64,000 bases of DNA from Patescibacteria group bacterium (GCA_038077975.1 JBBUGM010000006.1:4905-68904); one strand, 5' to 3'. Counted from the stretch's first letter, positions 2,522-54,009 are shown. Translations and numbers: made by a program. Notes: generated from the sequence alone by a model not told the origin.

Positions 2522-2691
2522 ACCGGCGATAATAAAACTTTCGTAGCCGACTTTATTTCAAAAGAGGTCGTGTTAACTTAAGCAATCAAAATTAAAAAAT
2601 CACGCTTAAACCCTTCTCTTTGAGGAAGGGGTGCGGATTTTTGTCGTGTTTTTGTTCGGGACGTAAAAATGAGCGAATTTTAAATTCCAAA

Positions 2692-8600: not shown

Positions 8601-9429
8601 GATCGGCGAACCTGGCACGCAGCTCACGATGCGTACTTTCCACACTGGCGGCATCGCCGGTATCGACATTACGCACGGCTTGCCGCGGGTGGAGGAGCTT
8701 TTCGAAGTGAGGCCGCCAAAAGGCAGGGCCATTCTTGCTCCGGCGGACGGGATTATTAAGGAAATAGAAGAGAGAGGGACGGCGAAGGCGGTGCAGTTCG
8801 TCCCGAACGAGGGCAAAAAGAAGAAGCCGCAGGAATTTTTGATCCCGCGCACGGCACTTTTGTTCGTTAAGGCGGGGGACGAAGTTAAGCGCGGCGATCA
8901 GCTTTCCGAAGGGCACTTGGACATCAAGGAACTTTTGGAGATCAAGGGTAAGCCGGAAGTTCAGCGCTACATTATCAACGAAGTGCAAAGGATCTATATG
9001 TCCGAAGGCGCGAGTATCAACAACAAGCATATCGAAATTATCGTGCGCCAAATGTTCTCGCGCGTGCGCATCAAGGATGGCGGCGATTCGTCGGAACTCG
9101 TGATGGGAGAGATCGTGGAAAAGGACAAAGTTTTGGAAGCGAACCGCGAACTGCGGAAGCAGGGCATGAAACAGGTTAAAGCTGAAGAAATATTACTCGG
9201 CATCACAAGGGTCGCGCTTTCCGCGGAAAGCTTCCTTTCAGCCGCTTCTTTCCAGGACACATCGCGCGTGCTCGTTAAAGCCGCGATCGAAGGCAGGATC
9301 GACAAATTGCGCGGCCTCAAAGAAAACGTCATTATCGGCCGCCTCATACCGGTTATCGGCAAGGAAGCCGCCGCAGAAGAAGCAGAGGCGCTTTTGCCAG
9401 GAGCGGAAGAAGTTGCAACCCAAGTGTAA
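2692..9429 (+). CDS. rpoBC: DNA-directed RNA polymerase beta-beta' fusion (RpoB-RpoC in one ORF)
   Basis: N-terminal half is RpoB. C-terminal half is RpoC (Zn finger [23 protein letters not shown], catalytic [11 protein letters not shown]). Junction near nt 5830-5880 has no stop or frameshift. Confidence 0.9.
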
Positions 9430-9521
9430 TGCCAATATGCGAATTCATTCGAATGCAACGAATAATGCGAATTCGTACTATTAGTTGCATTAGTACGCAT
9501 TGGTAGATTAGTATTACGTTT
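9430..9521. promoter_or_regulatory. intergenic region with repeated ATGCGAAT/ATTCGCAT motifs (candidate operator) upstream of rpsF
   Basis: atgcgaattc, ttcgaatgc, aatgcgaattcg repeats; same motif family as 60474-60581. Confidence 0.35.
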
Positions 9522-9956
9522 ATGGAAGAAAAAGACAAAAAAAATTACGAAGTCGCATTTATCCTTGAGAAAGAGGAGAATCTTCAGGATTTTTTGAGGA
9601 TCTCGCGCCAGCACAATATCGAGCCACAAACGGAGGCGCGGGCGCATAAGCTGAATCTTGCTTACAAGATCGAAAAAGCCACGCAGGCCTATTTCGGATT
9701 TTTCAGAACTTCTGCGAATCCTGATGATGTGAAAGCGCTCGAAAAGGACCTGAACACGGCCGCCGGCGTTTTGCGTTTTCTCATCGTCAAACTTCCAAAG
9801 GAAGCGTTTGAGGCGAGGAGGGAAAGAGTTGATATGAGGGATATGAGGAGAGAGAGAAAACCAATGCCCAGAAAAAACATGCCGACACAGCCCAGGGCTT
9901 CGGAAACCTTAAGCAACGAAGCGCTGGAGAAAAAGATTGAAGAAATACTTCAATAA
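9522..9956 (+). CDS. rpsF: 30S ribosomal protein S6
   Basis: S6-like pattern (YEVAFIL..., LAYKIEK, VLRFLIVK) and position directly upstream of ssb. Confidence 0.7.
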   Translation: MEEKDKKNYEVAFILEKEENLQDFLRISRQHNIEPQTEARAHKLNLAYKIEKATQAYFGFFRTSANPDDVKALEKDLNTAAGVLRFLIVKLPKEAFEARRERVDMRDMRRERKPMPRKNMPTQPRASETLSNEALEKKIEEILQ

Positions 9957-10052
9957 AATTTCTAATTTCTAAATCCTAATTTCTAAAATTTGACTATTTT
10001 AAATTTTTGGGATTTGATTAGAGCAATTAGTAATTAGAATAATTAGAAATTT
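9957..10052. repeat. AT-rich inverted-repeat module of CTAATTTCTAA / TTAGAAATTAG units around a TTGACT box
   Basis: aatttctaatttctaaatcctaatttctaa on the left is mirrored by attagtaattagaataattagaaatt on the right. Confidence 0.45.
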
Positions 10053-10541
10053 ATGAATCTCAACAAGGCCCTCCTCATCGGTCGCATCACGGCCGACCCC
10101 CAGCTTCGGACAACTCCCGGTGGGCAGTCGGTTTCAGCATTTTCGGTCGCTACGAACCGTGTTTGGACGGACAAGGCGGGCGCGAAGCAGGAATCTGTCG
10201 AGTTTCACAACATCGTCGTTTGGGGCAGGCAGGCGGAGATAGTGACGCAATATTTAACGAAGGGTAGTATGGTTTTGATCGAAGGACGCCTGCAGACGCG
10301 TTCTTGGCAAGGCAAAGACGGCCAGGAGAGGCGCACGACGGAGATCATTGCCGAGCGGGTGCAGTTCGGTCCCCGTTCGGCAAGCTCCCAGCCTTCGCAG
10401 GGCTACGGCGGGCAGGCAGGGCAGGCGAGGCCTGCAGCTGGCAAGCAAGGTGGCGGTGAAAGTCAGGCGACAAAAGAGGAAGAAGTTCCGACGGTGAATC
10501 TTGATAGTGAAGAAGTGAAGCCGGAGGACCTGCCGTTTTGA
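10053..10541 (+). CDS. ssb: single-stranded DNA-binding protein
   Basis: OB-fold SSB N-terminus (LIGRITADPQLRTTPGG..., VEFHNIVVWG), Gly/Gln-rich linker, acidic C-terminal tail ending DLPF. Confidence 0.85.
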   Translation: MNLNKALLIGRITADPQLRTTPGGQSVSAFSVATNRVWTDKAGAKQESVEFHNIVVWGRQAEIVTQYLTKGSMVLIEGRLQTRSWQGKDGQERRTTEIIAERVQFGPRSASSQPSQGYGGQAGQARPAAGKQGGGESQATKEEEVPTVNLDSEEVKPEDLPF

Positions 10542-10990
10542 TATTCATTTTCTTTATGCCTCAATCACCAGAAAAATCTATTGGCGAAAGCAACCCACCC
10601 CCAGAGAAGCATATTAAAGGCGAAGATTTGGAAATAGCAAAATTATATCAAAAAGAGCACCCAGATTTGGATAGAGATAAATTGGGTGTATTACTAGAAC
10701 GCGAGGGATTTGGAGCTGACCACCATAAGTTCAGTGGATGTAGTGATCGAGCAGAATATATCAATTTGGTTTTAGATAAAATATTTCTATCCCCTGAAGA
10801 AGTTGAACGGCAGAAGCAGATTTTGGCATTATTGAAGCAACTAGAGGACGGAGCAATTTATAAGTCAATTATTGGTTTTATGGGACCAGTTACCAACGAA
10901 GAAGAAAGGCTGCGAAAAATAGAAGATAGGAAAACAAAAATAATAGAAGAACTTCGCAATTTAGGATACGAGATGTATCCTCGGGAATAG
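10538..10990 (+). CDS. hypothetical protein (low-GC gene)
   Basis: 150-aa ORF, markedly lower GC than flanking ribosomal genes, no recognisable motifs. Confidence 0.4.
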   Translation: MIFIFFMPQSPEKSIGESNPPPEKHIKGEDLEIAKLYQKEHPDLDRDKLGVLLEREGFGADHHKFSGCSDRAEYINLVLDKIFLSPEEVERQKQILALLKQLEDGAIYKSIIGFMGPVTNEEERLRKIEDRKTKIIEELRNLGYEMYPRE

Positions 10991-10992
10991 AT

Positions 10993-11277
10993 ATGGCCAG
11001 AGAGCAAGAACCAAATTCAAGAGAGCAGTTAGCGCAAGAGTTTTTGGAAGTGCACGAAAAGTTGAAATCCTTGGTCTATGACCTCGGAGGACCAGCAGGA
11101 TATTTGGAACAATTAGAAGATCCAGTTGGAAAGAGAAATTACACGGATTCAGAAATAGATTCTGGCAAACCACTTTCAGAGATTATAGAGAACGATATAT
11201 ATAAAACAATGGAAGCGGTTGAGGCGGTATCAAAAAAGTGGAGAGAATTAAGAGAAAAACTTAGAGAAATTAACTAA
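10993..11277 (+). CDS. hypothetical protein (low-GC gene)
   Basis: 94-aa ORF 2 nt after the previous stop; same low-GC composition. Confidence 0.4.
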   Translation: MAREQEPNSREQLAQEFLEVHEKLKSLVYDLGGPAGYLEQLEDPVGKRNYTDSEIDSGKPLSEIIENDIYKTMEAVEAVSKKWRELREKLREIN

Positions 11278-11283
11278 TTTATC

Positions 11284-11709
11284 ATGGCGAAAAAGATTAA
11301 AACAGTTCTGAAATTACAGCTCCCTGCCGGGGCCGCAAATCCCGCGCCGCCCGTGGGCACTGCTTTGGGGCCTCATGGAGTTAACATCCAGGAGTTCTGC
11401 AAACAGTTCAACGAGAAGACCAAAGACATGACAGGGGACATTGTGCCGGCGGAAATTACGATCTTCGAAGACCGCAGTTTTAAGTTTATTTTAAAAACCC
11501 CTCCGGCCTCCGCGCTCCTCAAAAAAGCCGCCGGCGTTGAGAAAGGCTCCGGCAACCAGCTCAAGACCAAAGTCGGCAAAGTTACCCGTGCCGATATCCG
11601 CAAGATCGCCGAACGCAAAATGCCCGACTTGAACACGGATAATCTCCAAGCCGCCGAAAAAATAATTGCAGGGACGGCTCGGAACATGGGAATCGACGTA
11701 GTCGATTAG
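11284..11709 (+). CDS. rplK: 50S ribosomal protein L11
   Basis: Full-length L11 similarity ([16 protein letters not shown]...[13 protein letters not shown]...). Confidence 0.9.
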
Positions 11710-11721
11710 CCCATGTTCCGC

Positions 11722-11808
11722 TCGAAACCCCGTGTTGGAAGGCCGCCGCGAAGCGGCGGGAGTGGGAAACCAGAAGGTGTCCCAGACGGGGGTCGGGGTT
11801 TCGAGTAG
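11722..11808 (+). ncRNA. candidate structured RNA element downstream of rplK (three-way junction)
   Basis: 12-bp closing helix ctcgaaaccccg / cggggtttcgag encloses hairpins ccgccgc-gaa-gcggcgg and tggga...tccca; no poly-U tail. Confidence 0.3.
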
Positions 11809-11840
11809 GAAAGTGGGAATTGAAGTAGTAGATTGAAATT

Positions 11841-12098
11841 ATGTCCACTCGCGAATCATTACCAAGGCCAGAGGTTGACGCGGAAATTGCTCGCTTGAGG
11901 GCTTGGCTTGAAATTGCTAGAGACAGAGAGGAATACGACGAAAAACTAAGCGGATCATTTTCCCACTTACAACAGGAGCTGGAATCAACTTTGGGTAAAT
12001 TGCGTGGAGGAGATATTGCAAGTGCCGATCAGATATCCGATGAAAATTTAAAGAACCTAGCGGTAGCTTCCGAGCGACTGAAGAAGTTCCTCCCATAA
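11841..12098 (+). CDS. hypothetical protein
   Basis: 85-aa ORF, weak RBS. Confidence 0.35.
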   Translation: MSTRESLPRPEVDAEIARLRAWLEIARDREEYDEKLSGSFSHLQQELESTLGKLRGGDIASADQISDENLKNLAVASERLKKFLP

Positions 12099-12123
12099 GA
12101 GAAATAAAATCTAAATTAAAATA

Positions 12124-12156
12124 AAAGCCCCTCCGCTACGCGGAGGGGCTTTTTGA
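12124..12156. terminator. bidirectional intrinsic terminator
   Basis: aaaagcccctccgc-tacg-cggaggggcttttt between convergent genes. Confidence 0.6.
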
Positions 12157-12159
12157 TTT

Positions 12160-12831
12160 TTAGTTCTCAACAGGCAGAATGGGCAGAAGAACTCGTTTTA
12201 TATCTTCAAATACTTCGCTTTCCAGCTGATCACCGTTTATGACTACGGTATTATCGCGGAAGAGATCATGTTTCGCCAAGGCGAGGTAGTTCATTCTTAT
12301 CTTCTCCAGCTTTTGCTCTTGCTCGAAAAAATCGCTCTTCTTGATTTTTTTAAATCGCCTCTCAACCCTTGTCATCGCCTTATTTGCTGGCATATCTACG
12401 ACGATGTTCAGATGCGGCCATACAAAAAGCGGACCGATAACCTGTTTGTGCAGCTCTATGAAGTAATCAGCTGACTGATTGTAAAGCATGCCATACGCGA
12501 TGGTCGACATGCAGAATCTATCCATAAGGTACAGTCGTTCGCTGTCTTCTTGTAAAAATGGCCTGATGTAACAGAAGAAATCTTGGGCGCGGTCAATGAC
12601 ATATAGCCGCTGAAATTCGACAGGATTTTCTATCATCGGCACATCGTCTGAAAGCATGTTTCTGATCAATCTGCCAGATGGATTCGATTGATCGTTGGGC
12701 TCGAGAGATCCGGCAGTAAGATACCCTTGCTCTTTAAGCCATGCGAAGATTCGCAAAAACTGAGTGCTTTTCCCCGAGCCGTCGATTCCCTCGAAGGCGA
12801 TCAATTTTCCTTTCATGTCTAGCTCCGGCAT
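12160..12831 (-). CDS. tmk: thymidylate kinase-like dNMP kinase
   Basis: P-loop AFEGIDGSGKSTQ plus DRF...STIAYG motif; start taken at the ATG giving MPELD (TTG at 12876 and the ATG giving MKGK are also possible). Confidence 0.65.
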   Translation of the reverse strand: MPELDMKGKLIAFEGIDGSGKSTQFLRIFAWLKEQGYLTAGSLEPNDQSNPSGRLIRNMLSDDVPMIENPVEFQRLYVIDRAQDFFCYIRPFLQEDSERLYLMDRFCMSTIAYGMLYNQSADYFIELHKQVIGPLFVWPHLNIVVDMPANKAMTRVERRFKKIKKSDFFEQEQKLEKIRMNYLALAKHDLFRDNTVVINGDQLESEVFEDIKRVLLPILPVEN

Positions 12832-39050: not shown

Positions 39051-40802
39051 TTATTTTTTGAGTATCTCTCTGAACGTTTCCGGCGGGATGTCAACGCGCG
39101 CCATTGATTGCAGTTTTTCCTTCCCCCTCGCCTGTTTTTTCCAAAGCTTCATTTTGCGCGTTCTGTCGCCGCCGGTTTTTCCGAAATTGCCCAAAAGTTT
39201 CTTCATGGCCGGAATCGTTTCGCGGGCAATGATGCGCCCGTGCGCTTGCGCTTGTATCGCCTGCGTAAATTGCTGTTTGGGCAAAAGCTCCTTGAGGCGT
39301 TCCACGGTTTGCCGCGCCTCGCGCTCAATGTCTTTTTCCGCAACTATGCGCGTTAGAGCCGGCACAACGTCGCCCACAACAAGAATTTCGAGTTTCGCCA
39401 CCTCCGCCTCTTCTTCGCCTGCAAGCTCGTAGCTGAATGATGCGTAACCTTGGGAAGCGGACTTCAACTTGTCATCAAAATCGCGGATAAGTTCCGCAAG
39501 CGGCATTTTTGCTTCGACAATGACGCTGTCGCCCATGGTTTGCACTTCGAGTATTTCAATATCAAAAACGTTCTTCAGCATCGCCACGGAATTCAAATAT
39601 TCCTTTGGCGCCAGAATTTCGAGCTTGATCATTGGCTGCCATGCTTTGTCCGGCTTGTCGGGAAAATCCTGCGGCTGTTTGATAACTTTTTTCGTGCCAC
39701 TCTCTTCGATTGTGTAGGCAATGGTGGGGAAACTGGTAAGGAATTCCAAGCTGAATTCTCTTTCGAGGCGGCTTGAGACGATCTCGAAATGAAGCTGTCC
39801 TAAAAATCCTACCTTTAGTCCACGCCCAAGGGCCTCGTTCGCTTCGGGCTCGATCGAAAGCGCCGGATCCGAAAGGCGCAAACGATCCAGGCCTTTCTTC
39901 AAATCCTCGAATTTGGTTTTGCCATCCGGATAATAAGAAATGAAGACGACCGGTGCCACCTCGCGATAGCCCGGAAGCGGAGTCGCTTCGCGGCCTGCTG
40001 GTCTTATTGTGTCACCAATACGGACAAGCGCCGGCTCTTTGAGCCCTGTTGCAACATAGCCGATCTCGCCGGAACGAACCGCTTCGGAACGCTTGAATTC
40101 GGGAGTAAAATATCCGACTTCTTTGGGATGAAACCTGGTTCCGCCGGAAGCAAATTGCATTTCACTTCCGCCGAAGTCGCCCGAAAAGACGCGCACGAAT
40201 GCGATGATACCCTTGTGATCATCGTAGAGTGAGTCGAAAATCAATGCCTTCTCGCCATCCGTAGCACGCGGTGCAGGGAATTTTTCGATGGTTGCATTGA
40301 GCAATTCCTCAACTCCGACGCCCGTCTTTGCCGAAATACGAAAAATCTCTTCGGCGGGAACTCCGAGAAGTTCGGCGGTTGCCTTCACTGTTTTTTCGAT
40401 GTTCGGTAAGTTGAGATCAATTTTGTTCACGGCGCCGATTATTTTTAGACCCGCCCTTCTCGCGGCTCGCAAATTGGAAAGCGTCTGCGCCTGAATTCCT
40501 TTCGTGGCATCAACAAGCAGGATCGCGCCCTCGACCGCCGCAAGAGCGCGTGAAACCTCGTAGGAGAAATCGCTGTGTCCCGGCGTGTCGATCAGATTCA
40601 GAATGTGACCCTTGTACGACATCCTTACCGGCGCCATCTTGATTGTGATTCCCCGTTCGCGCTCGAGCTCCATCTTATCCAAATACTGCGGCTTCATCTG
40701 CCGCTTATCCACCGTTCCTGTGATTTCCAAAAGCCGATCGGCGAGAGTCGATTTACCGGAATCGATGTGGGCAATAATACAGAAGTTGCAAATATTATTC
40801 AT
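39051..40802 (-). CDS. lepA: elongation factor 4
   Basis: G domain AHIDSGKSTLADRLL, DTPGHSDF, and LepA-specific C-terminal domain. Confidence 0.9.
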   Translation of the reverse strand: MNNICNFCIIAHIDSGKSTLADRLLEITGTVDKRQMKPQYLDKMELERERGITIKMAPVRMSYKGHILNLIDTPGHSDFSYEVSRALAAVEGAILLVDATKGIQAQTLSNLRAARRAGLKIIGAVNKIDLNLPNIEKTVKATAELLGVPAEEIFRISAKTGVGVEELLNATIEKFPAPRATDGEKALIFDSLYDDHKGIIAFVRVFSGDFGGSEMQFASGGTRFHPKEVGYFTPEFKRSEAVRSGEIGYVATGLKEPALVRIGDTIRPAGREATPLPGYREVAPVVFISYYPDGKTKFEDLKKGLDRLRLSDPALSIEPEANEALGRGLKVGFLGQLHFEIVSSRLEREFSLEFLTSFPTIAYTIEESGTKKVIKQPQDFPDKPDKAWQPMIKLEILAPKEYLNSVAMLKNVFDIEILEVQTMGDSVIVEAKMPLAELIRDFDDKLKSASQGYASFSYELAGEEEAEVAKLEILVVGDVVPALTRIVAEKDIEREARQTVERLKELLPKQQFTQAIQAQAHGRIIARETIPAMKKLLGNFGKTGGDRTRKMKLWKKQARGKEKLQSMARVDIPPETFREILKK

Positions 40803-43221: not shown

Positions 43222-44778
43222 ATGAATCCTGGGTCAATTATCCACATGCTCAATTCTCAATCAAAAGTTAATGACAGGAAGATGCAAGTCGGAGAACTTG
43301 GGACTCCGGCCTTGTCAAAAGAAGAACGCCTCGCTATCGAGAAGTTTTTTTTGGCGAAAGGGCTTCCTCTCGACCGCGCGGTGACTTTTGCCGACGTTAC
43401 GCTTCCCGAGCGCTATTCCGACATCCGCACGCGCTCGGAGGTTTATGATTTTAAGACGGAACTTGTTCCGGGCTTTTCGCTTGCCATTCCGGTTGTGAGT
43501 GCGAACATGGAATCGGTAACGGGTCTTGAGTTATCCGTGGCGCTTGAGTGCGAAGGGGGATTGGCTTTCCCGCCGCAGACCCTGCCGGTCGGCGAGCGCG
43601 TGGAGCTTATCGAACGCATTGCGCGGGCAGATTCCGCTTTTATTGAAAATCCGCTTACGGCAAGGCCGGAGTGGACGCTTAACAAGGCAAAAGAATTGAT
43701 GGCGGAGTATGGCGTGAAGAGTTTGATAGTTACGGACGAGAAGAAGAAAGTAGTCGGCATCTTTACAAAAAGAGATTGGTTCTACGAGAACGACGACAAG
43801 ACATTGGTGGGCGATCTGATGACCAAAAAGGTAATAACGGCGGAGCGCGGCGTTAATTTCGAAAAAGCAGGCGAGATCTTGCGCAAAAATAAAATTGAAA
43901 AACTCCCGCTTGTGGGGAAGCAAGGAGGCCTCGCGGGGCTTATCACCGCTAACGGCCTTTTCTATAAATATCGGCATCCGCGGGCGACGCGTGACGATAT
44001 GGGAAGGTTCGTCCGTACGGGCTCGATCGGCGTCGGCAAATCTTTTAGCGATACGCACCTCAAAGAAGTCGAATCGCAAGTTAAGGCAGGCATATCATTG
44101 CTCTTAGTTGACACTGCAAGGGCGTTTTCGGTGAACACCGAAGAAGCTGTGAAGAGAATAAAAAAAGAATTTCCCGCGCTTCCGCTCGTTGTTGGCAATG
44201 TTTCTACCGCCGAAGGGGCAAAATTTTTATTCGAGACGGGTGCGGATATCGTGAAAGTCGGCCAGGGTCCCGGTTTTGCCTGCCGCACGCGCGCGATCGG
44301 AGTCGGCGTGCCGCAACTCTCCGCCGTTGCGGAATGCGCGGTTATTGCCTCGTGCTACGGTAAAACCGTCATTGCCGACGGAGGAATGAAAAGTCCGGGT
44401 GACGCGGCGAAGGCCTTAATCGCCGGAGCGCGGGCCGTGATGCTGGGCAATATGCTCGTGCGCGCGCAAGAATCCGCCGCGCCGATGTTCGTTGACGAAG
44501 ACGGCAGGCCGGTAAAAAATTATGTCGGTTCTGCGTCTTTCGCCGCGCAGATGGCGCGTCTCGAACGCGGCGATCTCTCGCATCTCCGCCGCCCGGAAGG
44601 CGTAACGAAAGTTGTTCCGGTCACAGGCACGGTGGAAGAGATTGTGAATGACCTAATGCGCGGCTTGAGTTCTACGATGGCTTACTTGGGAGTGCGCAAT
44701 CTCAAAGAACTTCGTGAGCACGGGAGATTTATTTCGCAAACTTCTGCAGGGTATGTGGAGGGCGTGAAGAAAGGATGA
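43222..44778 (+). CDS. IMP dehydrogenase/GMP reductase-family protein with CBS pair
   Basis: TIM-barrel motif VGQGPGFACRTR with catalytic Cys in place; CBS-like segments; atypical N-terminus. Confidence 0.65.
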   Translation: MNPGSIIHMLNSQSKVNDRKMQVGELGTPALSKEERLAIEKFFLAKGLPLDRAVTFADVTLPERYSDIRTRSEVYDFKTELVPGFSLAIPVVSANMESVTGLELSVALECEGGLAFPPQTLPVGERVELIERIARADSAFIENPLTARPEWTLNKAKELMAEYGVKSLIVTDEKKKVVGIFTKRDWFYENDDKTLVGDLMTKKVITAERGVNFEKAGEILRKNKIEKLPLVGKQGGLAGLITANGLFYKYRHPRATRDDMGRFVRTGSIGVGKSFSDTHLKEVESQVKAGISLLLVDTARAFSVNTEEAVKRIKKEFPALPLVVGNVSTAEGAKFLFETGADIVKVGQGPGFACRTRAIGVGVPQLSAVAECAVIASCYGKTVIADGGMKSPGDAAKALIAGARAVMLGNMLVRAQESAAPMFVDEDGRPVKNYVGSASFAAQMARLERGDLSHLRRPEGVTKVVPVTGTVEEIVNDLMRGLSSTMAYLGVRNLKELREHGRFISQTSAGYVEGVKKG

Positions 44779-44979
44779 CTTGTCATTGCGAGGCCGAAGC
44801 CGCCAGGCGAAGGCCGTGGCAATCCATAAATGCTAGAATGAAACACATGAGAGAAACTATTTCAACCAAAAAATCCGCCCAAAATATTCAAGACGAAATT
44901 TTCAGCAAGATGTCGCCTGGAAAAAAAATAAAATCAGCCGCAGAGCTTGCGGCGCTGTGCTTAAAACTTAACCGCCTCA

Positions 44980-45552
44980 ATGGAGCTAACCAGTCAGGAA
45001 AAAATTCTGATTGATGTAGCAAGAACGCTTGAAAAGCTACACCTCCCGTATTTTGTTACAGGTGGTTTTGCGGTTTCTCTCTGGGGTCGCCCTCGAGCCA
45101 CTTTTGACGTGGACATCGTGATTCAGCTTATGAACTCGGATATCAATCCACTTGCTAAGGCGCTAAAAGAAGTTTCTAAATTGGGTTACATAGACGAAGA
45201 CATGATGAAAGACGCTGTCAAATGGCACCGAGAATTTAATTTCATTGATCCGGAAAGCGGCATGAAGGTGGATTTTATGGTTAGTCCCAATGACGAGTTC
45301 TCCCGTTCAAGATTTAAACGGAAGAGCGCGAAAGAAATCGGTGGACAGCAAGTATATTTTACATCACCGGAGGACTTGATATTGAGCAAACTCTTATGGC
45401 AAAAGGAATCCGGCTCCGAATTGCAGCTTAGAGATGTGGAATCGATCATCAAAATTTCTGGTCGTAAGCTCGACAGGTCTTATTTGGAAGAATGGGCAAG
45501 AAAATTGGGCGTTTGGGATGTTTTGGACGGCATTTTAGAAGACGCGGCATAG
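44980..45552 (+). CDS. predicted nucleotidyltransferase-fold protein
   Basis: YFVTGGFAVSLWGRPRATFDVDIVI NTase-like core; preceded by a small overlapping ORF (about 44838-45014). Confidence 0.45.
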   Translation: MELTSQEKILIDVARTLEKLHLPYFVTGGFAVSLWGRPRATFDVDIVIQLMNSDINPLAKALKEVSKLGYIDEDMMKDAVKWHREFNFIDPESGMKVDFMVSPNDEFSRSRFKRKSAKEIGGQQVYFTSPEDLILSKLLWQKESGSELQLRDVESIIKISGRKLDRSYLEEWARKLGVWDVLDGILEDAA

Positions 45553-45660: not shown

Positions 45661-48399
45661 ATGAGTCGAAACCCGAAAGAGCAAGACAGCAAGCGAGATC
45701 CGCAAGCAGAACAGGCAGAGAAAGAAAAACAGCAAGTGATGCGGTTTTCGAAAAAACTGCGTCCGTATCTCAAAAAGTCAGGCCGTATTCGCAACCAGCA
45801 AGTTGTGCAGGCGTCCAATGTCGAAAAGAACAAGGCCCGCGGTTTTCTGGCCAAACTTGTCGAACTGGGATACTTGATCAACGTTGCCGATTCAGAAGAC
45901 GGCTGTACATGGTATTTCTCGAACGAAGAAGGTTTTTACGAATCCGAAGAGCTCTACAAACTCATCCCCGAACAAGAGCGGAACAGAATTTTGGAACACA
46001 TCGATGATGAAGTCATCACGCTCGACAGTTTGGCCAATGCGTTGTATGGCAACCGAGCGCGTGGAGTGAACTTCTTGGAGACATTCCTTGATTATTATGT
46101 TGACCTGGGATTGATCCAGTTCAGCAACAAGGAAGACGGATATTTACTGACCGAGCGTGGCGCTGAACTTGGCGTTGATGCTCAGTCCGTGAGAACTCTC
46201 GAGGCCACCGCACTTGAAAACGATATTTTCGTTAAGAGCGAAGAAAACGCAGAGCTTCCCGCGTCTTTGAAGACAGTGGGAGAAGCTTTGAAACAGGATA
46301 TCGTGAACAAAACGGTTCCCGTTATCGACCTTACCAAAGAACTTGGCGGCAAGGACCTCAAAATCCTTTTTGTCGGCGAAGTTCTCTACGGCAGTCAGTA
46401 CACCGACCAAGAGCTTCTTGACTGGGTGCTTGACGCTACGGACAAACCCAACCTCATTATCACGAGCGGGCTTGTTCAAGGCAGGTTTGAGACCAAGAAC
46501 AAGGCGAAGACGAGGATGCTCGCGGAAACGGGCGGTCTCCACAGGATCGAAACCCAATTCCATTCGGCCGGCATGTTGCTCGATTGGTTCGAGAAGATCG
46601 CGACCAACAGGGTTTGTCTGATCCAGAGCGATGACGATTGGCGTCTCGCCGAAGATTATGCGACCTTGATGCATCTTGCCGAAGGCAAAAACCCCTGGAA
46701 GTTTGGCGTTGATTGGACCAGTTTTTCTGCCGAAATGAAGCGTCGCCTTGAAAACAAGGAATTGCGGCGCAAGATCCGCATTCAGTGGGAAATCATTCAA
46801 GCGTACATGGGACGCATTGGTCGTTCGCTTCTGAACAAAAAGGAAGTGAAAGCCAGAATTGGCATTCGCAAGAGCGAATATCGCCTGATCATCGAGACCA
46901 TGGTTGCGAAACGCAACAACTTCGATTACCCGAAGGAATACGAAAAAGTCGTGAACGTTGAAGCTCTCTATGGCAATATCGGTAAACGCATTGTCACTCC
47001 CGATACCTTGCGCCTCAAAGTCAGAGAGGGTAAGGAGATCAGAGTTACCCATAATGCCGGATTTTCGGACATCACTCAATATCAGGACACGATCCAACAC
47101 CTTGATGCGATCGCGAGACACCTCGGCCTTTCCAGACAGGAATTGCCCTGGGTGCTTGCCGATTTCCACCAAGAATCCCTTTTCGGCGAATACCTGATGG
47201 GAACCTGGATCATGAACCTGCCGGGCATGCAGAACACGATGCCTGCGGCCGCATACACGCTCAAAGAATGGAACGCGAAGATCCTTGAATCTAAGGAACG
47301 GAGACAAAGCCGGGTTCGCAAAGAACCTGCTTCGCCCGCTGCGACGGAAATTAATTTCTGCGCAGATGGCCGTATCCGTATCCGGCTGATGAATCGACAC
47401 GTGATGGAAGTTCTCGCTGCGCAAAAAGGTGAAAAGGAACGAAGAGAAGTTGGTGTCCTTGGAACCGATCTGCAGTTCGGCTCGATCACCAATTGGCCCG
47501 AACTTTCCGCCAAGTTTCTCGACTACGGCCTCTATGGTCGCAGGGCGACGAAACTCTGGCTGAACGGCGACATCATCCACGGCAACATTTACCCGCAGCA
47601 TACCGCGGAGAGCAGGCCGATGCGTTTGACCTCTCTGCACGCTCAAAAGAAATTCGCTTTTAACTTGCTTGCTCCGCTGATCCTTGACGCCCCGAACTTG
47701 AATGATTGCGCGGCTTGGCTTGGCAACCATGAATGGAACAACTTTGATGCCAAGCGTTCCGGCGACAGCCCTCTCACCTTTCTTGAGATCGGCCTCCAAG
47801 GCGTTCTCATGGAAAGGAAGCGCGTGGGTACCGAAACCCCGCTCGAGAGAGCCATGACCGTCAGCCGGATCCGCTGGCGCGATACGCACAATCCGCAGGG
47901 CGACATCATCAACTGGCCTTTCTTCGCCGACACGATTTGCGGCTTCAAGGTTGCCATTCAGCACATGTGGCAGCCGTTTGCCGGAAAGACGCCGGCCAAT
48001 GAAGGCAAAAAGTGGCTCAAGAACATGGCACGCGCGGCAAGAGGATTTGACCTTTTGCTTGGCGGCGACAAGCACTCTGTTTGGATGGCTGGACTTGGCG
48101 ACAAGTTCATCGTTCAGGCGGGTGCGGGTGCGAGCCAAAGCGGCTATGAACTTGCGCGCGGACTCATGTCCACGGTGATGTTCACACTTGTCGAATTTTC
48201 GAACCGCGACGGCATTACCGTTGAGTTCGTGCCCTGGGAATTTTTGCTGAACAACTATGAATTCCAATGCCCGGCCTACAAAGGCAGGGATGCGGAATTT
48301 GTTCGTCCGGCTCCGGGGACTAAGGCGTACAAACAAGGCAAGATGGCTCCGGCCATCGAAGAGATGATCGAAGACCTGACTGCCTATCCCGAAGTCTAA
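45661..48399 (+). CDS. large hypothetical protein: N-terminal wHTH-like region plus C-terminal degenerate metallophosphatase-like motifs
   Basis: GAGGAGG RBS; 912 aa; C-terminal half has DLQFG, GDIIHGN, GNHEW, GGDKH in calcineurin-like order. Antisense 730-aa ORF judged a shadow. Confidence 0.6.
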   Translation: MSRNPKEQDSKRDPQAEQAEKEKQQVMRFSKKLRPYLKKSGRIRNQQVVQASNVEKNKARGFLAKLVELGYLINVADSEDGCTWYFSNEEGFYESEELYKLIPEQERNRILEHIDDEVITLDSLANALYGNRARGVNFLETFLDYYVDLGLIQFSNKEDGYLLTERGAELGVDAQSVRTLEATALENDIFVKSEENAELPASLKTVGEALKQDIVNKTVPVIDLTKELGGKDLKILFVGEVLYGSQYTDQELLDWVLDATDKPNLIITSGLVQGRFETKNKAKTRMLAETGGLHRIETQFHSAGMLLDWFEKIATNRVCLIQSDDDWRLAEDYATLMHLAEGKNPWKFGVDWTSFSAEMKRRLENKELRRKIRIQWEIIQAYMGRIGRSLLNKKEVKARIGIRKSEYRLIIETMVAKRNNFDYPKEYEKVVNVEALYGNIGKRIVTPDTLRLKVREGKEIRVTHNAGFSDITQYQDTIQHLDAIARHLGLSRQELPWVLADFHQESLFGEYLMGTWIMNLPGMQNTMPAAAYTLKEWNAKILESKERRQSRVRKEPASPAATEINFCADGRIRIRLMNRHVMEVLAAQKGEKERREVGVLGTDLQFGSITNWPELSAKFLDYGLYGRRATKLWLNGDIIHGNIYPQHTAESRPMRLTSLHAQKKFAFNLLAPLILDAPNLNDCAAWLGNHEWNNFDAKRSGDSPLTFLEIGLQGVLMERKRVGTETPLERAMTVSRIRWRDTHNPQGDIINWPFFADTICGFKVAIQHMWQPFAGKTPANEGKKWLKNMARAARGFDLLLGGDKHSVWMAGLGDKFIVQAGAGASQSGYELARGLMSTVMFTLVEFSNRDGITVEFVPWEFLLNNYEFQCPAYKGRDAEFVRPAPGTKAYKQGKMAPAIEEMIEDLTAYPEV

Positions 48400-48405
48400 A
48401 AAATA

Positions 48406-48441
48406 TGGCCCCTGCGCAATGCGCCGGGGCCTTTTTGTTTC
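48406..48441. terminator. bidirectional intrinsic terminator
   Basis: ggcccctgcgcaatgcgccggggcc followed by tttttgtttcttttc, between convergent genes. Confidence 0.55.
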
Positions 48442-48446
48442 TTTTC

Positions 48447-48992
48447 TTAAAATGTTCCGTCTATCGCGGCGAGGATTCCTGTTCGATCACTTTGCATATA
48501 GAGCGGATTTTTGCGGTAAGGAAAGTGGCGGCGGAATTTCTTGTTGCGCACTTCAACCCAAAGGCGGAATTGCGAATCCCAGCGCGTGTTCCAATAAGGA
48601 CGTCCCAGTTCTCTGTTGAGCTTCACTCGGCGCTGCCTCATATTTTCGAAAGATTTGCTTCCCTTGCCTCTGTAATAGCGTTTGGCCTGACGCGTGTCCC
48701 AGTGGATTACATACGGTTTATCGGTGTTTTGCGCGCCATCGCCAACATGGTGGAAAGCGCAAAGCGTGATGCCGTTTTCCGGGGAATTCACGTCCCAGCC
48801 GCAGCCCTTATAGTGAGCATCGTAATATCCGCGCGGCGCGATGTGATGCACCTGAAGATGCGTTTTGTTGCGGCACCTCTCCCACTTCTTTGTTCCCGCG
48901 TTGTATGTCATAAAACAGCACTGATGTCCGTCGCGTTCAAGTATCCAGAGGCGTTGTGATTTGGTGAGGCCAGGAACTTTTTCTTTTGCCAC
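48447..48992 (-). CDS. HNH endonuclease
   Basis: RDGHQC...C...LQVHHIAP...NGITLCAFHH HNH/Zn-finger motif, 181 aa. Confidence 0.75.
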   Translation of the reverse strand: MAKEKVPGLTKSQRLWILERDGHQCCFMTYNAGTKKWERCRNKTHLQVHHIAPRGYYDAHYKGCGWDVNSPENGITLCAFHHVGDGAQNTDKPYVIHWDTRQAKRYYRGKGSKSFENMRQRRVKLNRELGRPYWNTRWDSQFRLWVEVRNKKFRRHFPYRKNPLYMQSDRTGILAAIDGTF

Positions 48993-49036: not shown

Positions 49037-49073
49037 ATGGAAGTCCGACTTCCATTAGGAAGTCGGACTTCAT
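49037..49073. promoter_or_regulatory. tandem palindromic operator-like sites in the divergent HNH/pcm promoter region
   Basis: atGGAAGTCcGACTTCCat followed by aGGAAGTCgGACTTCat. Confidence 0.4.
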
Positions 49074-49085
49074 AAAATTAGAGCA

Positions 49086-49790
49086 ATGGCTCGTACCAAC
49101 AAAGAACTTGCTGAAGAGCTCATCCGCGACGGATATTTGAAGTCGCCGCTTTTGATCAGGGCCTTTCGCGCGATCAACCGCAAAGATTTCGTTCCGAAAG
49201 AATTTTGGGACGAGGCATACGGAAATTATCCGCTCGATATCGGCGAGAGGCAGACGATCTCGCAGCCGTTAACGGTCGCTTTTATGCTCGAGCTTCTTTC
49301 GTCGCAGCCAGGAGAAAACATTTTGGATATTGGCACGGGTTCTGGATGGGTGGCCGCTATTTTGGCCTACGTGGTTAGCCAAAACAGCGGAGATCAAAAT
49401 GTCGGAAGAGTTATCTCAATCGAGCGCATCAAAAAACTTTCAGAAAGTGCAGAGAAAAATTTGAGAAAATATGGATTTATAAAAAAAGGAATTTTAAAAT
49501 TTATCGTCGGTGATGGCTCGCGTGGGTATGAAGCGGAAGCTCCATATGACAAAATTATTGTCGGAGCTGCCGTTCAGGTGGCGGAGATCCGCCGAAGCCC
49601 AGAAGGGCGAAGGAGGACCGCCGCGGCAGGGGAGCGAATTCCCATAGCATGGAAGAAGCAACTTAAGGTGGGAGGCAGAATAGTCGCGCCTGTCGGAAAT
49701 TCCGTGGTCGTCGTCGACAAAATTTCGGAAAAGAAGTTTCGCTCTCGCGAATATTTTGGGTTCAGTTTTGTTCCGCTTGTGAAAGGATAA
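49086..49790 (+). CDS. pcm: protein-L-isoaspartate O-methyltransferase
   Basis: ERQTISQPLTVAFMLELL and LDIGTGSGW SAM-binding motifs. Confidence 0.8.
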   Translation: MARTNKELAEELIRDGYLKSPLLIRAFRAINRKDFVPKEFWDEAYGNYPLDIGERQTISQPLTVAFMLELLSSQPGENILDIGTGSGWVAAILAYVVSQNSGDQNVGRVISIERIKKLSESAEKNLRKYGFIKKGILKFIVGDGSRGYEAEAPYDKIIVGAAVQVAEIRRSPEGRRRTAAAGERIPIAWKKQLKVGGRIVAPVGNSVVVVDKISEKKFRSREYFGFSFVPLVKG

Positions 49791-50106: not shown

Positions 50107-52824
50107 ATGAAACGAAACTCTGTTTTTGTGCTGTGTTTCATGCTTTTGGCCGTTTCTTTGGCCTTGGCCCAGGATACGCCCGGGCAAGGACCGCAGGGAC
50201 CGCAAGGACCCCAGCAAGGACCGCCGGGTGATTTGCCCAATAACCAAACCCCCGAGGTTCGTAAACAGACCGAAGCCGAAAAAATCCAAGAACTTCAAAA
50301 GAGAATCGCAAATAAAGAAAAAGAAGTTGGTGAAAAAGAACAAAAACATCAGGCCTTGATTAAGGAGTCGGTCGACAAATTCGGATTTACCGCCGAAGAA
50401 CTCGCCGTGCTCGAAGAACTTGTTGCGGAGAAAGAAAAAAACCGCAGGAAGGAACTCGAAAACCGAGTGCCCGAGGACAAGCGCAAACAAGCTTCGAAGA
50501 TCATAAAGTCCCTCAAGGATCTCACGAAAAAGAGAAGCGAACTTGCCCGCCTAAGAGAAGACCTTTCCGCGCTTCAAGCCCGTCAAGATTCGCCGGAGTC
50601 CGTGAAGAGTGGATCGCCGGAAACCAAGGGCGGTTCTTTCGACAAGAAAGCGGAAAAGAAGATCGCGGAAAAGATCAAAGATTTAGAAACGGAATTGGCC
50701 AGGACAAAGTCGGATTTCGAGCGCAAGAAGATCGAACGCGAACGTGAAATTCAAGAAGAGCAATCGGAAGAGAAACGCGCCGAACTTGAGGAAAAATTCG
50801 CGAACTTTATCGAAGACAATCGCGAAAAAGTCCAAAAACTCGAAACCAGGATCGAGGTACTGCAAGGGATGCCTGTTGAGGCCCTACGCAGGGAAGATGA
50901 TGAGTTCAAGAAAGTTGCGCCTTATTGCGGTTTGCGCGATCCCAGAGATTTTTGGGGAGACCCGCAAGATACGATCGAAGACCTGGACTTGCCCGACAAG
51001 TGTACTTACGTCGACAGAGTAAGCGTCACCGTGCCTGTCGGCCAGATCAGCGCGGCGACCGCTGCCGTTTGTACTGCGAGAGGGATGTTGTGGAGCAATC
51101 AGCTCACGATCAACAACCTTTCAGCGCTTTTTTTCCACTACTACCCCGTGAATTCTCCGCCCCTGCTCATCGGTTACACCCCGTATTTTCCACAACTCTC
51201 GATGTTGCAATTCGAGCTTTCCCCGATCTCTCGCGACCAGCTTATTGCGGAAATCTGCAAAATGGGAGGAGTTGCTTCCGCCGGAGATTTCGACTGGGTC
51301 GAGGTTCTGACCGCGTCTCCGAGCGAAGCTCATTCTCCCGAACAAATGCTTGCTCAGATCTTTATGGATCCGCAACGGCGTAGCGGCGGGCAGATGTCCG
51401 GTTTTCCCGCGCCCAAGAGCGAAATGCCCGACTTCGGCCTCTGCAACATCGTTTTCGATCCAACCCTGAGCGATCTGCTTCTCAAAGAAGGCGAAGCATT
51501 CGAGGCGATCGTGAACAGCTTCTCCAAGGAGCTTCAGCCGCTCGAAGCCGGTTTGCAGGAATTTGAGGATTTCGAGAAGGCCATTGAACAATTGCGCAAG
51601 AATTTCGGTTCGAATTCCGGACCGGAAATCCTTGCTTTGGCCGAGAAAGCCGAATCTTCAAAGTACCTGCTACCCTATGCCTCGGAACTCCGCAATATCG
51701 CAGGCAAAGCTGGCGCAGGCGACTTGAAGGGTGCGAAGAAAGATCTCGAAAAATTGAACAACAAGAAGATCAAGAAAGACCACAAAAACCTGCTTAAGGA
51801 ATATGTCAGGTACGCGCAACATATTGCGCGCGCGGCCGATCTTCGTAATCAGTTCGAATTTACCGCGATCCAAACTCAAGGAGCAATTAGCGACCTCATC
51901 AAGATCAAACCGAAGGAAGAGCGGGACCCTCTCTACGCGCTCGAAAAAAAGCGCATGGAGTCGGCCCGCGCCTTCCAGGATCGCTACGATGATCTCAAGA
52001 AAGCTCTTGCGAGAGAACTTAACGACGCAGACCACATGGAGCCGGTTATTGTCGATTTCGGCGATAAGCGAATGGTCCTTACGTCTTTTGAAGGCGTTCG
52101 CAGGAACCAGAGAACAATGAGCGCTCGCCTGAAGATGAAGTTTTCTTCTTCCTATCTGCCGATGAAGGCGGATGGGACGATCGATCTTGACGCGAAGCCG
52201 CTCGATGACGCCATCCCCGCGGTTTTCGAGATAGACGAACTCCTTGGTCTTGGCATCAAGGGTATCGTACCGCCTCATGGCCCGATCGTATGGCTCGAAG
52301 AGCTGAAGGAACAAGGGCATAAGCAAGTTACTGCCGATCTGCCGAAAGGAAAACCTGGCCGCAATTTCGTTTCCGTCGAAGAATTGATCCGTTTTGGCGG
52401 GAATGATCAGCGCCTAATGATCGATGGACAGGAAATCGCACTTACCGACCTTGCCGGGAAGGGTGTTTACTTGTTTTTGGTGCGTTCCAACGCAGAGCCC
52501 GATCCAACGTATCACCCCGACTATATCCCGAGCAGAGAGAATCAATATCTCTCGGTCGCGAAATTTGTCGCAGAGGACTCCGCGCAAAATAAAACTGTTA
52601 AAAAGCAGTTCACCATCGTGCGTCTCATTTTCGAGAGCAAGCGAACTCTAAGCACTCTCAATAACGAAGAGAATCCGCAGACGATCGAAGTTCCGTTCCG
52701 TCTTCGTCCCGGACTCTACCGCAACCGATTCATCGTTTATGATGTCTTCCAGAAGAAGGGCGTAAAGCTGCCACCGATCGATTTTCGCGTTTTGCTGCCG
52801 GAGGAAACTCCGACGCAACCCTAA
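50107..52824 (+). CDS. large secreted protein with collagen-like GPQ repeats and long K/E-rich coiled-coil region
   Basis: Signal peptide MKRNSVFVLCFMLLAVSLALA, QGPQGPQGPQQGPPG, then about 200 aa of charged heptad-like sequence and a globular C-terminal region. Confidence 0.6.
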   Translation: MKRNSVFVLCFMLLAVSLALAQDTPGQGPQGPQGPQQGPPGDLPNNQTPEVRKQTEAEKIQELQKRIANKEKEVGEKEQKHQALIKESVDKFGFTAEELAVLEELVAEKEKNRRKELENRVPEDKRKQASKIIKSLKDLTKKRSELARLREDLSALQARQDSPESVKSGSPETKGGSFDKKAEKKIAEKIKDLETELARTKSDFERKKIEREREIQEEQSEEKRAELEEKFANFIEDNREKVQKLETRIEVLQGMPVEALRREDDEFKKVAPYCGLRDPRDFWGDPQDTIEDLDLPDKCTYVDRVSVTVPVGQISAATAAVCTARGMLWSNQLTINNLSALFFHYYPVNSPPLLIGYTPYFPQLSMLQFELSPISRDQLIAEICKMGGVASAGDFDWVEVLTASPSEAHSPEQMLAQIFMDPQRRSGGQMSGFPAPKSEMPDFGLCNIVFDPTLSDLLLKEGEAFEAIVNSFSKELQPLEAGLQEFEDFEKAIEQLRKNFGSNSGPEILALAEKAESSKYLLPYASELRNIAGKAGAGDLKGAKKDLEKLNNKKIKKDHKNLLKEYVRYAQHIARAADLRNQFEFTAIQTQGAISDLIKIKPKEERDPLYALEKKRMESARAFQDRYDDLKKALARELNDADHMEPVIVDFGDKRMVLTSFEGVRRNQRTMSARLKMKFSSSYLPMKADGTIDLDAKPLDDAIPAVFEIDELLGLGIKGIVPPHGPIVWLEELKEQGHKQVTADLPKGKPGRNFVSVEELIRFGGNDQRLMIDGQEIALTDLAGKGVYLFLVRSNAEPDPTYHPDYIPSRENQYLSVAKFVAEDSAQNKTVKKQFTIVRLIFESKRTLSTLNNEENPQTIEVPFRLRPGLYRNRFIVYDVFQKKGVKLPPIDFRVLLPEETPTQP

Positions 52825-52874: not shown

Positions 52875-53936
52875 TTATCTGCCAAGCTGTCGGGTGTACC
52901 AGATATCGTAGTCGAAAGGACGGAAAATACCTTTTTCATCGGTTTCGCCGACTTGTAGGATCACTTCCTTCCCTTTATTGCCTTTTTTGAGGTAGAAGCC
53001 GACCTCATACATTTTACCGAAGAGTTCTGCGATTTTATCGAACTTTTCTCCCGCCTCGTTCGGTTTTTCCGCGGTGAGGCGCCTCCCTCCGGTCATTGCC
53101 GTGAGGAATTCGAGGTCTTCCTGAGACAGGCGTAATTGTGGCTTGTCGCTGAAACGTCCGGCAAAATCAACGATGTAAATGCTGGTGTTTGATAGAGCGA
53201 AAGCAGTGACGAGGTCATCAACCCCGACCGTTCTGCAGGAAGCAGATGCCGCAGTGCAGGGTGTCCCGCTCGCGCTGTCAATGAGTTTGCGTTTCAGTTC
53301 GCGCGACTGGTCGAAGGTGTCAGTTACGACAATTACCATGTTGCGCCGGTTTTCGTTATCGCGGCCAAGCATTTCCTCTGAGGCATAGTAGAGCGTGTCG
53401 AGCAAGCTCGTATTGTTGTCGACGGCCTCGATCGAGGCAATGCCCGTTCTTACCGTTTCGATATCCTTCGTCCAGGGAACAACAACAGAACGTTTGTCGT
53501 TCATTGTCCAGACGGAGAATTCATCGTCCGTTCGGCTGATAGTACGAATGAAACGGCGTTGGGCCGGTTTCGAAAAACGGTTGAGATGCGCTCTCGCCGA
53601 TGCCGAATTGTCATCAATAAATAGCAAGTTGACCGGAGGCCGGTTGAATTCATTGGAGAAAGCGATCTCTTCAGGGTTGGCGCAGGGAGTTTTCGGTTGT
53701 TCTTCGAGTTTCATTTTCTTGCTGCGCTTGGTGGTTGTTTCTGTTGGGCAAGCCCGCCAGTTTTCTTGCTTGATGCCCGAGATGGCCATGCCTTTGCGTT
53801 CGACCGTGACCATGCGTACCACGAGTTCGACGTCTACGCGGATCGTTGTGCCTTCTTGAGAATGGTTTTGCGCCGTGGCCAATGCCGGCTGAAACAGCAG
53901 ACAGAGCATTACTCCGAAGTGCAGGATCTTTTTCAT
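52875..53936 (-). CDS. secreted von Willebrand factor A (VWA)-domain protein
   Basis: Signal peptide, MIDAS-like DDNSAS (DxSxS) and downstream VVTDTFD; GGAAGGTGG RBS. Confidence 0.55.
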   Translation of the reverse strand: MKKILHFGVMLCLLFQPALATAQNHSQEGTTIRVDVELVVRMVTVERKGMAISGIKQENWRACPTETTTKRSKKMKLEEQPKTPCANPEEIAFSNEFNRPPVNLLFIDDNSASARAHLNRFSKPAQRRFIRTISRTDDEFSVWTMNDKRSVVVPWTKDIETVRTGIASIEAVDNNTSLLDTLYYASEEMLGRDNENRRNMVIVVTDTFDQSRELKRKLIDSASGTPCTAASASCRTVGVDDLVTAFALSNTSIYIVDFAGRFSDKPQLRLSQEDLEFLTAMTGGRRLTAEKPNEAGEKFDKIAELFGKMYEVGFYLKKGNKGKEVILQVGETDEKGIFRPFDYDIWYTRQLGR

Positions 53937-54009
53937 TGAAACCACCTTCCATATTCAAAATTTGCTGGTTTTATAATACACTAAGCGTAAAGAAAGTACA
54001 AGGAGGATC

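Follow-up and report, generated by a model that had tools for sequence, protein, structure and literature searches.

Gene organisation at the locus

Within a 64,000-nucleotide stretch of the genome of a Patescibacteria group bacterium (GCA_038077975.1, JBBUGM010000006.1:4905-68904; hereafter the window, in whose numbering its features are given), we analysed a large gene, here called X, together with the nuclease gene that converges on it. X occupies positions 45661..48399 on the plus strand and encodes a cytoplasmic protein of 912 amino acids (aa), and an open reading frame (ORF) of 181 aa at 48447..48992 on the minus strand encodes an HNH endonuclease. Both ORFs, which had been proposed in an initial annotation made from the sequence, are real; they lie tail to tail with a gap of 47 bp. 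The bidirectional intrinsic terminator that the same annotation placed between them is also real, and is a hairpin at 48407..48432 that folds with a dG of -21.1 kcal/mol (z -3.6) on the plus strand and -21.4 kcal/mol (z -4.1) on the minus strand, with A- and T-tracts on both sides that supply U-tracts for either direction. Orthologous hairpins are found 3′ of X at the loci of two close orthologues, L001 (72% identity) and L008 (76% identity). As the hairpin follows X in L008, the terminator belongs to X itself and in the window serves the HNH gene as well, rather than marking the two genes as a pair.

X represents an undescribed protein family of Patescibacteria

The 31 close homologues of X share 39-76% identity with it, are all labelled ‘hypothetical protein’ and come from Patescibacteria/Paceibacterota metagenome-assembled genomes (MAGs). 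A scan of genome contigs, limited by its reliance on exact peptide patterns, gave only 10 loci. An exhaustive profile search expanded the family to 182 clusters at 50% identity, 161 of them at E<=1e-10. Full-length members are nearly all 900-1250 aa long, and many homologues carry an extra N-terminal extension of 100-200 aa; X itself has no signal peptide and no hydrophobic N-terminus. No annotation name is attached to any cluster member that was looked up, and every labelled member derives from a Patescibacteria/Paceibacterota-type MAG (Jorgensenbacteria, Yanofskybacteria, Paceibacterota or ‘Patescibacteria group’). The large protein had been said to match no recognised family, in agreement with which X matches none in Pfam, NCBIfam or PADLOC; PHROGs likewise hold no family for it and return a single weak match to phrog_284 (‘exonuclease’, E 0.005). 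A scan of eight of the longest distant homologues for fused domains gave none, and literature searches returned no description of the family. X belongs to an undescribed, lineage-restricted family of chromosomal proteins.

The C-terminal domain is a metallophosphoesterase with a near-invariant predicted metal site

A catalytic-looking metallophosphoesterase (MPE) domain spans residues ~593-860 of X (47437..48240, plus strand), as indicated by motifs, residue conservation, profile comparison and Foldseek. The four motifs listed in the initial annotation are all present in their proposed order and spacing, namely DLQFG (603-607), GDIIHGN (636-642), GNHEW (688-692) and GGDKH (801-805), and the calcineurin-like phosphoesterase reading built on them is borne out, far beyond chance, by profile searches (Pfam Metallophos, best E 2e-4; the DP1 subunit of DNA polymerase D (PolD), E 5.1e-6) and by fold (Foldseek E values down to 6e-6). 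Metallophos (PF00149) is matched by 12 of the 27 family members over which Pfam domain frequencies were counted, and its gathering score is reached by none of the 27. At E<=1e-3, Foldseek searches with AlphaFold2 (AF2) models returned 42 PDB matches for full-length X and 38 for its middle domain, and the top 50 matches listed are almost all MPE proteins, indicating the two-layer beta-sandwich MPE fold.

The ligand set of the C-terminal MPE comprises D603-x-Q605, G636-D637, G688-N-H690-E, H768 and G802-D803-x-H805. Conservation was counted over an alignment of 116 full-length members, in which D603 and G636-D637 are invariant (100%), N689, H690 and H768 are each kept in 99%, H805 in 96% and E691 in 91%. 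Position 803 is H in 91% and D in 8%, the window protein having D, and position 640 is H in 43/116 and Q in 62/116, the window protein reading GDIIH640. Four of the five MPE motifs (DxH, GD, GNH[DE], H, GHxH) are canonical and near-invariant in X, the fifth, motif I, being DxQ, so that the family consensus across the motifs runs from DxQ to GHxH. Motif I had been described as degenerate; however, position 605 is Q in 108 of the 116 members (93%) and H in the remaining 8, and because D-x-Q is family-wide with D-x-H kept in a minority, the motif is the family norm and not a product of decay. This second MPE is thus predicted to retain a complete, near-invariant dinuclear-metal site in which Q605 replaces the usual His.

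A degenerate MPE fold and two winged helices precede the C-terminal domain

The full-length AF2 model of X, computed on the family alignment (pLDDT, the predicted local distance difference test, 81; pTM, the predicted TM-score, 0.79), comprises two winged helices, a helical linker, an alpha/beta domain, a linker formed by a short beta-hairpin/helix, and a second alpha/beta domain. The first of the two alpha/beta domains (residues ~228-522; 46342..47226, plus strand) is a degenerate MPE fold, which lies upstream of the four listed motifs and was absent from the initial annotation; it is supported by hhalign and by AF2 with Foldseek, and carries a helical insert of ~100 aa at ~341-440. Comparison of residues 225-530 with residues 590-872 within the 116-member alignment gave an hhalign probability of 89% (E 2.3e-7) over 231 colinear columns, and matches the relict motifs of the middle domain, EVLYGSQ (240-246), SGLVQG (269-274), DDDW (324-327), H464 and HQE (503-505), to the C-terminal motifs one by one: EVLYG pairs with DLQFG, SGLVQG with NGDIIQG, Q299 with Q662, GDDDW with GNHEW, H464 with H768 and DFHQE with GGDKHS. 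Modelled in isolation, residues 221-592 gave a pLDDT of 81.8 and a pTM of 0.82, and the model matches DP1 (E 1.8e-6) and the DNA polymerase (Pol) alpha B-subunit (E 3.3e-6) in Foldseek, followed by Vps29, the Pol epsilon B-subunit, GpdQ and Mre11. The two MPE folds of X therefore arose by internal duplication. The former ligand positions of the first copy are conserved in 48-64% of the 116 members; this copy has lost its metal ligands and is dead. As the first site drifts and the second is frozen, it is probably the second that is under selection for catalysis.

The acidic residues of the middle domain (E240 ... GDDD324-326) also resemble a Toprim signature, a candidate that was ruled out by the motif-for-motif hhalign correspondence with the C-terminal MPE, by the isolated model, which matches MPE folds alone, and by the poor conservation of these residues in distant members. 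A profile of residues 218-442 searched against PDB sequences gave nothing meaningful, returning a pentatricopeptide-repeat (PPR) artefact alone.

The N-terminal winged-helix-like segment of the initial annotation is real and contains two such units. Winged helix 1 (residues ~41-90; 45781..45930, plus strand) is formed in the AF2 model by helices 45-52 and 56-68 and strands 72-77 and 82-87, and winged helix 2 (residues ~118-165; 46012..46155, plus strand) by helices 121-129 and 136-148 and strands 152-155 and 160-163. Winged helix 1 matches HTH_IclR at E 0.012, an N-terminal profile of X gives a weak MarR/MntR match (E 0.0023), Pfam HTH_45 matches residues 139-180 and is seen in 10 of the 27 members, and a Myb-like match occurs in two of the 27; these sequence matches are weak but recurrent and suggest winged helices in agreement with the model. 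The architecture of X is winged helix-winged helix-dead MPE-live MPE, and a tandem live/dead MPE with a double winged helix is undescribed in the libraries and literature searched.

X is most similar to DP1 and Mre11 but belongs to neither family

Full-length X, as sequence or profile, returned only noise from PDB sequences (CD8, antibody, acetyl-CoA carboxylase), and a signal appeared solely once the profile was restricted to the C-terminal domain. The best match is then PolD DP1 (6knb_A, E 5.1e-6), aligned across motifs I-III and sharing SDxxxGS and GDxxxGxxxYPxQ with X, and the next is Thermotoga maritima Mre11/SbcD (E 0.004), aligned across motifs I-II. Foldseek with the whole X model gives the same order, with DP1 first (E 6.4e-6), then Mre11, whose matches include the Methanocaldococcus jannaschii Mre11-DNA complexes, and after these Vps29, the Pol alpha and epsilon B-subunits, MJ0936, Rv0805 and GpdQ. 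Among the viral models of BFVD, phage MPEs rank at the top (E values down to 2.9e-9), several of them carrying the annotation ‘DNA polymerase II small subunit’. Each other's closest relatives, DP1 and Mre11 have a common His-assisted two-metal nuclease mechanism, for which the His of GNHD/E (H451 in DP1, H85 in Mre11) is essential (PMC4996933), and a phage DP1-like MPE has limited but measurable 3′-5′ exonuclease activity (PMC11795197). From profile and model comparison, the live MPE appears closest to this nuclease branch (DP1, Mre11/SbcD and the phage DP1-like proteins), a placement that is a best match and falls short of a proven clade.

DP1 is the best PDB match of X by sequence profile and, for both MPE domains, by fold, and both proteins are multi-domain, their phosphodiesterase (PDE) fold being preceded by a helical or winged-helix module at the N-terminus. 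Whereas DP1 has an oligonucleotide-binding (OB) fold inserted in the N-terminal part of its PDE domain (PMC4996933), X has the dead MPE there instead, and no five-stranded OB barrel is present in the AF2 secondary structure of X. Motif I is D-x-H in DP1 and D-x-Q in X, and DP1 is archaeal, whereas the host of X is bacterial. Neither a DP2-like or polymerase gene nor a large unannotated gene adjoins X in the loci examined, a statement confined to these loci as genomes were not searched in full.

Mre11/SbcD is the second-best match to X by both sequence and fold, and its motif II (GDxxH) is present in the window protein as in the 43 members with H640. Mre11 works with two MPE domains paired in a dimer, an arrangement that X could imitate through its tandem fusion, with one ‘protomer’ dead. 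The N-terminal winged helices set X apart from Mre11/SbcD, and the Mre11 capping domain was not recognised in X, where only ~50 residues follow the MPE core. Among the neighbours of X that were listed or mapped, in the window as at the other loci, no Rad50/SbcC-type ATPase gene is seen, again with no genome-wide search. Phage DP1-like and Bxb1 gp47-type exonucleases are the top structural matches of X in BFVD, and the phrog_284 match is of this kind too; these phage proteins have 250-500 aa and are mostly matched over ~270-370 columns, one MPE domain's worth, whereas X is a chromosomal protein of ~900-1250 aa with a duplicated fold and winged helices. X is thus most like DP1 or Mre11 and yet a member of neither family. 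Remote-homology searching, the check that the initial annotation had proposed, accordingly places residues ~593-860 among the MPEs and the N-terminus among winged helices, and names no housekeeping family for the protein.

X is a syntenic chromosomal core gene

Gene order was mapped for 20 X-bearing locus entries, a few of which are duplicate fetches of one contig. Both close orthologues (L001 and L008) keep the order adenosine deaminase-IMP dehydrogenase (IMPDH)-X, with LepA upstream as well in L001. The most constant neighbour of X across the 20 entries is pcm, encoding protein-L-isoaspartate O-methyltransferase, which is the next gene after X, in the same orientation, in L005, L006/L011 and L014-L020, and direct X-pcm adjacency is found in at least 11 genomes; in L008 and in the window, pcm (49086..49790, plus strand; Pfam PCMT E 7.4e-55) is downstream with genes inserted between. 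The upstream neighbour varies: six loci have ddl, three have a GalT-like gene, and the closest clade has IMPDH. X therefore keeps housekeeping synteny across 43-76% identity and is a syntenic chromosomal core gene.

A cytidine-deaminase-like gene (336-348 aa, HxE...CCGNCRD) lies directly 3′ of X in L001 (10855-11865), L003 (11215-12261), L008 (8130-9158) and L010 (849-1877). The L001 and L003 copies share 41% identity, and one copy matches TIGR01354 (cytidine deaminase) at E 2.5e-5; the C-terminal half of the protein is uncharacterised, and no Pfam family is above threshold. No homologue of this gene was found in the window by tblastn.

Several further observations concern the flanks of X and its neighbours. 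Between IMPDH and X in the window, a 79-aa ORF overlaps a 190-aa nucleotidyltransferase gene by 35 nt (44775-45552, plus strand; DUF6036 E 7e-5, PADLOC AbiEii E 0.0048), forming a toxin-antitoxin-like pair that is absent from this position in L001 and L008. With the HNH gene on the other side, both flanks of X in the window have acquired accessory genes. Upstream of pcm, a perfect 14-bp hairpin at 49039-49072 (dG -26.9 kcal/mol, z -7.6) is formed by a palindromic GGAAGTCNGACTTC unit present twice, and ends 13 nt 5′ of the pcm start codon; the unit has no further copy elsewhere in the window, and the hairpin may act as an operator or attenuator or may be the scar of an insertion. Farther downstream, the gene at 50107-52824 (plus strand) encodes a 905-aa protein without a Pfam family that has an N-terminus resembling a signal peptide, a stretch rich in Gly, Pro and Gln, and a long region rich in Lys and Glu that is probably a coiled coil, and a gene for a secreted VWA-domain protein follows next on the opposite strand (52875-53945). 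The LepA orthologue of L001 (2291-4540, 749 aa) has a PDDEXK_3 nuclease domain inside its GTP_EFTU domain, an insert that may be mobile or intein-like; the LepA of the window (39051-40802, 583 aa) is without it.

A very distant X homologue of 1283 aa is present in L022, within an insertion of ~9.5 kb (2604-12320) between the genes for ribosomal proteins L24 and L14. It adjoins an IS30-type transposase (rve + HTH_38), and a 55-nt sequence recurs 5′ of several genes of the locus, among them X, whose start codon it directly precedes. The X gene of this lineage may reside on an accessory or mobile island. Two 261-aa genes that flank the homologue were considered as insertion sequence copies and rejected, being mutually unrelated.

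The HNH gene is independent of X

The HNH assignment of the convergent ORF holds, with a match to Pfam HNH_2 (PF13391) at E 1.9e-5 and 24.9 bits (cutoff 21) and with motifs HLQVHH (45-50) and NGITLCAFHH (73-82) that provide the H-N-H residues and Cys pairs. Its closest known counterparts are stand-alone HNH_2 endonucleases, from which it differs in having no recognisable DNA-binding, intron or intein context and in belonging to a very small clade. This clade of nine consists of the window copy and eight homologues, and among the 20 locus entries an HNH homologue is near X only in the window and in two close relatives, L008 and L010. The gene is absent from five independent X orthologue loci (L001, L003, L005, L006 and L007) and from the vicinity of X in L011-L020, and in L009 an HNH homologue lies between glutamine amidotransferase and pyruvate:ferredoxin oxidoreductase (PFOR) genes in the absence of X. 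A cytidine-deaminase-like gene of 342 aa stands between X and the HNH gene in L008 and L010, and the two abut in the window only because this intervening gene has been lost.

The initial annotation had suggested that the two genes recall nuclease/phosphoesterase pairings of phage-defence or mobile-element contexts. Such a pairing is made very unlikely by the absence of the HNH gene at most X loci, by its occurrence without X in L009, by the conserved LepA-adenosine deaminase-IMPDH-X and X-pcm orders, and by PADLOC-DB v2, in which X has no match and the HNH protein matches REase_MTase_IIG at E 0.057 only. The proposed comparison of gene neighbourhoods thus gave opposite results for the two genes, synteny being kept for X and not for HNH. 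Of the alternative that the same annotation had set against its own proposal, the part concerning the HNH gene is seen, as the gene does occur in unrelated contexts; X for its part is core and syntenic, but no named housekeeping family contains it. We conclude that HNH is a small accessory gene for an endonuclease, unrelated to X and not its partner; its adjacency is an accident of insertion and deletion, and a false lead towards defence is thereby removed.

Proposed function of X

We favour, with a probability of roughly one half, a reading in which X is a DNA-directed, metal-dependent phosphodiesterase built as a fused Mre11-like pseudo-dimer, with the HNH gene as an unrelated accessory gene; the catalytic activity, the nucleic-acid substrate and the packing of the pseudo-dimer are what we infer from motifs, relatives and models. 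In such a mechanism, the winged helices, together with the extra N-terminal module of many homologues, would hold DNA or a DNA-bound partner, and the dead MPE would pack on the live MPE as a built-in pseudo-dimer that mimics the Mre11/SbcD homodimer. At DNA ends or 3′ termini, the live site would then cleave phosphodiester bonds through the canonical MPE mechanism, with two metals and an assisting His, putatively H690 of GNHE, and the live domain would act on nucleic acid as a 3′-5′ exonuclease or an end-processing endonuclease.

Several points weigh against this assignment. The likeness to DP1 and Mre11 is remote (29.5 bits, ~13% identity and a target-normalised TM-score of ~0.4), and Pyrococcus abyssi DP1 scores E 0.1 only. 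No Rad50/SbcC- or DP2-like partner is seen among the neighbours of X that were listed or mapped, within ~6-8 kb where contigs allow, and the conserved neighbours (pcm, ddl, the GalT-like and cytidine-deaminase-like genes) do not indicate DNA metabolism. In 93% of members, Q takes the place of the metal-binding His of motif I, and position 803 of the window protein is D instead of H; judged from the sequence, these substitutions leave activity of the C-terminal MPE no more than plausible. Finally, for all members of the family the nuclease role is a prediction from sequence and modelled structure.

The alternative that fares best is that X is a small-molecule phosphoesterase of nucleotide salvage or signalling, such as a 5′/3′-nucleotidase, a 2′,3′-cyclic nucleotide (2′,3′-cNMP) or cNMP phosphodiesterase or an Ap4A hydrolase, with winged helices that would serve regulation or oligomerisation. 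The closest clade does place X between adenosine deaminase/IMPDH and a cytidine-deaminase-like gene, but this context is restricted to one subclade, others having ddl or a GalT-like gene upstream. The MPE matches include Rv0805, GpdQ, MJ0936 and putative 5′-nucleotidases, although such families rank below DP1 and Mre11 in both sequence and fold searches, and ~600 aa of winged helices and dead MPE would be an unusual accessory for an enzyme of this kind. In Escherichia coli, pcm has the nucleotidase gene surE as its neighbour, which would also fit this alternative. The lack of de novo nucleotide synthesis in Patescibacteria (PMC10633639) likewise speaks for it, and we regard this alternative as possible though unlikely.

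X may, alternatively, be non-catalytic, both of its MPE folds being scaffolds as in the eukaryotic polymerase B-subunits and Vps29 and the whole protein a DNA-binding regulator or adaptor. The inactive B-subunits and Vps29 are indeed among the top structural matches, chiefly of the middle domain, and the His-to-Q replacement in motif I and D803 of the window protein would fit a lost activity; however, seven metal or catalytic positions are 91-100% conserved among the 116 members as against 48-64% in the dead copy, and eight members keep the canonical D-x-H, so that we consider a wholly inactive X improbable. Still less credit is due to a PPP-like protein phosphatase (Ser/Thr/Tyr or His) linked to the protein-repair enzyme Pcm. 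GNHE and ‘GDxxxG’ are similar to PPP signatures and pcm adjoins X in at least 11 genomes, but neither a PPP structure nor an ApaH/PrpE-type sequence occurs among the PDB matches, X has its own terminator ahead of pcm or HNH, and the adjacency may be mere inherited synteny within one class. Least credible, and already largely refuted, is a two-gene phage-defence or mobile-element module of X and HNH, to which the convergent arrangement on one terminator, the accessory flanks in the window (AbiEii-like nucleotidyltransferase pair upstream, HNH downstream) and the L022 homologue on its island beside an IS30-type transposase within a ribosomal-protein operon lend some colour, against the lack of a PADLOC match for X, a terminator that is X's own, the scattered occurrence of HNH with respect to X (missing from most loci, separated by another gene in L008 and L010, alone in L009) and the synteny of X across 43-76% identity.

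Returning to X as a DNA-directed phosphodiesterase, a more specific proposal may be put forward very tentatively, and we would not be surprised to see it fail: that X is a self-contained, Rad50-independent nuclease of Mre11/DP1 type in Paceibacteria-type Patescibacteria, in which a live/dead MPE pseudo-dimer and a winged-helix DNA clamp would supply an end-processing, proofreading or DNA-degrading (nucleotide-salvage) activity otherwise lacking in these reduced genomes. It is tempting, though on weak grounds, to connect X with DNA uptake as a source of nucleotides; in one cultivated Saccharibacterium, com genes made no significant fitness contribution by transposon sequencing (Tn-seq) and a comEC deletion mutant is viable (PMC10633639).

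A large part of bacterial diversity belongs to the Patescibacteria, and for most of the conserved proteins specific to their lineages no function has been assigned. The X family is large in protein size (~900-1250 aa) and spread over many genera, and now has a testable architecture and active site. If the more specific proposal of a Rad50-independent nuclease is true, X would be related, as a bacterial protein of new architecture, to the archaeal PolD DP1 exonuclease lineage. Should X be a nuclease, it would be a rare relative of the DP1/Mre11 branch in bacteria, acting without the ATPase or polymerase partner that is usual there, and would illustrate how a homodimeric enzyme can become a fused pseudo-dimer with one live and one dead half.

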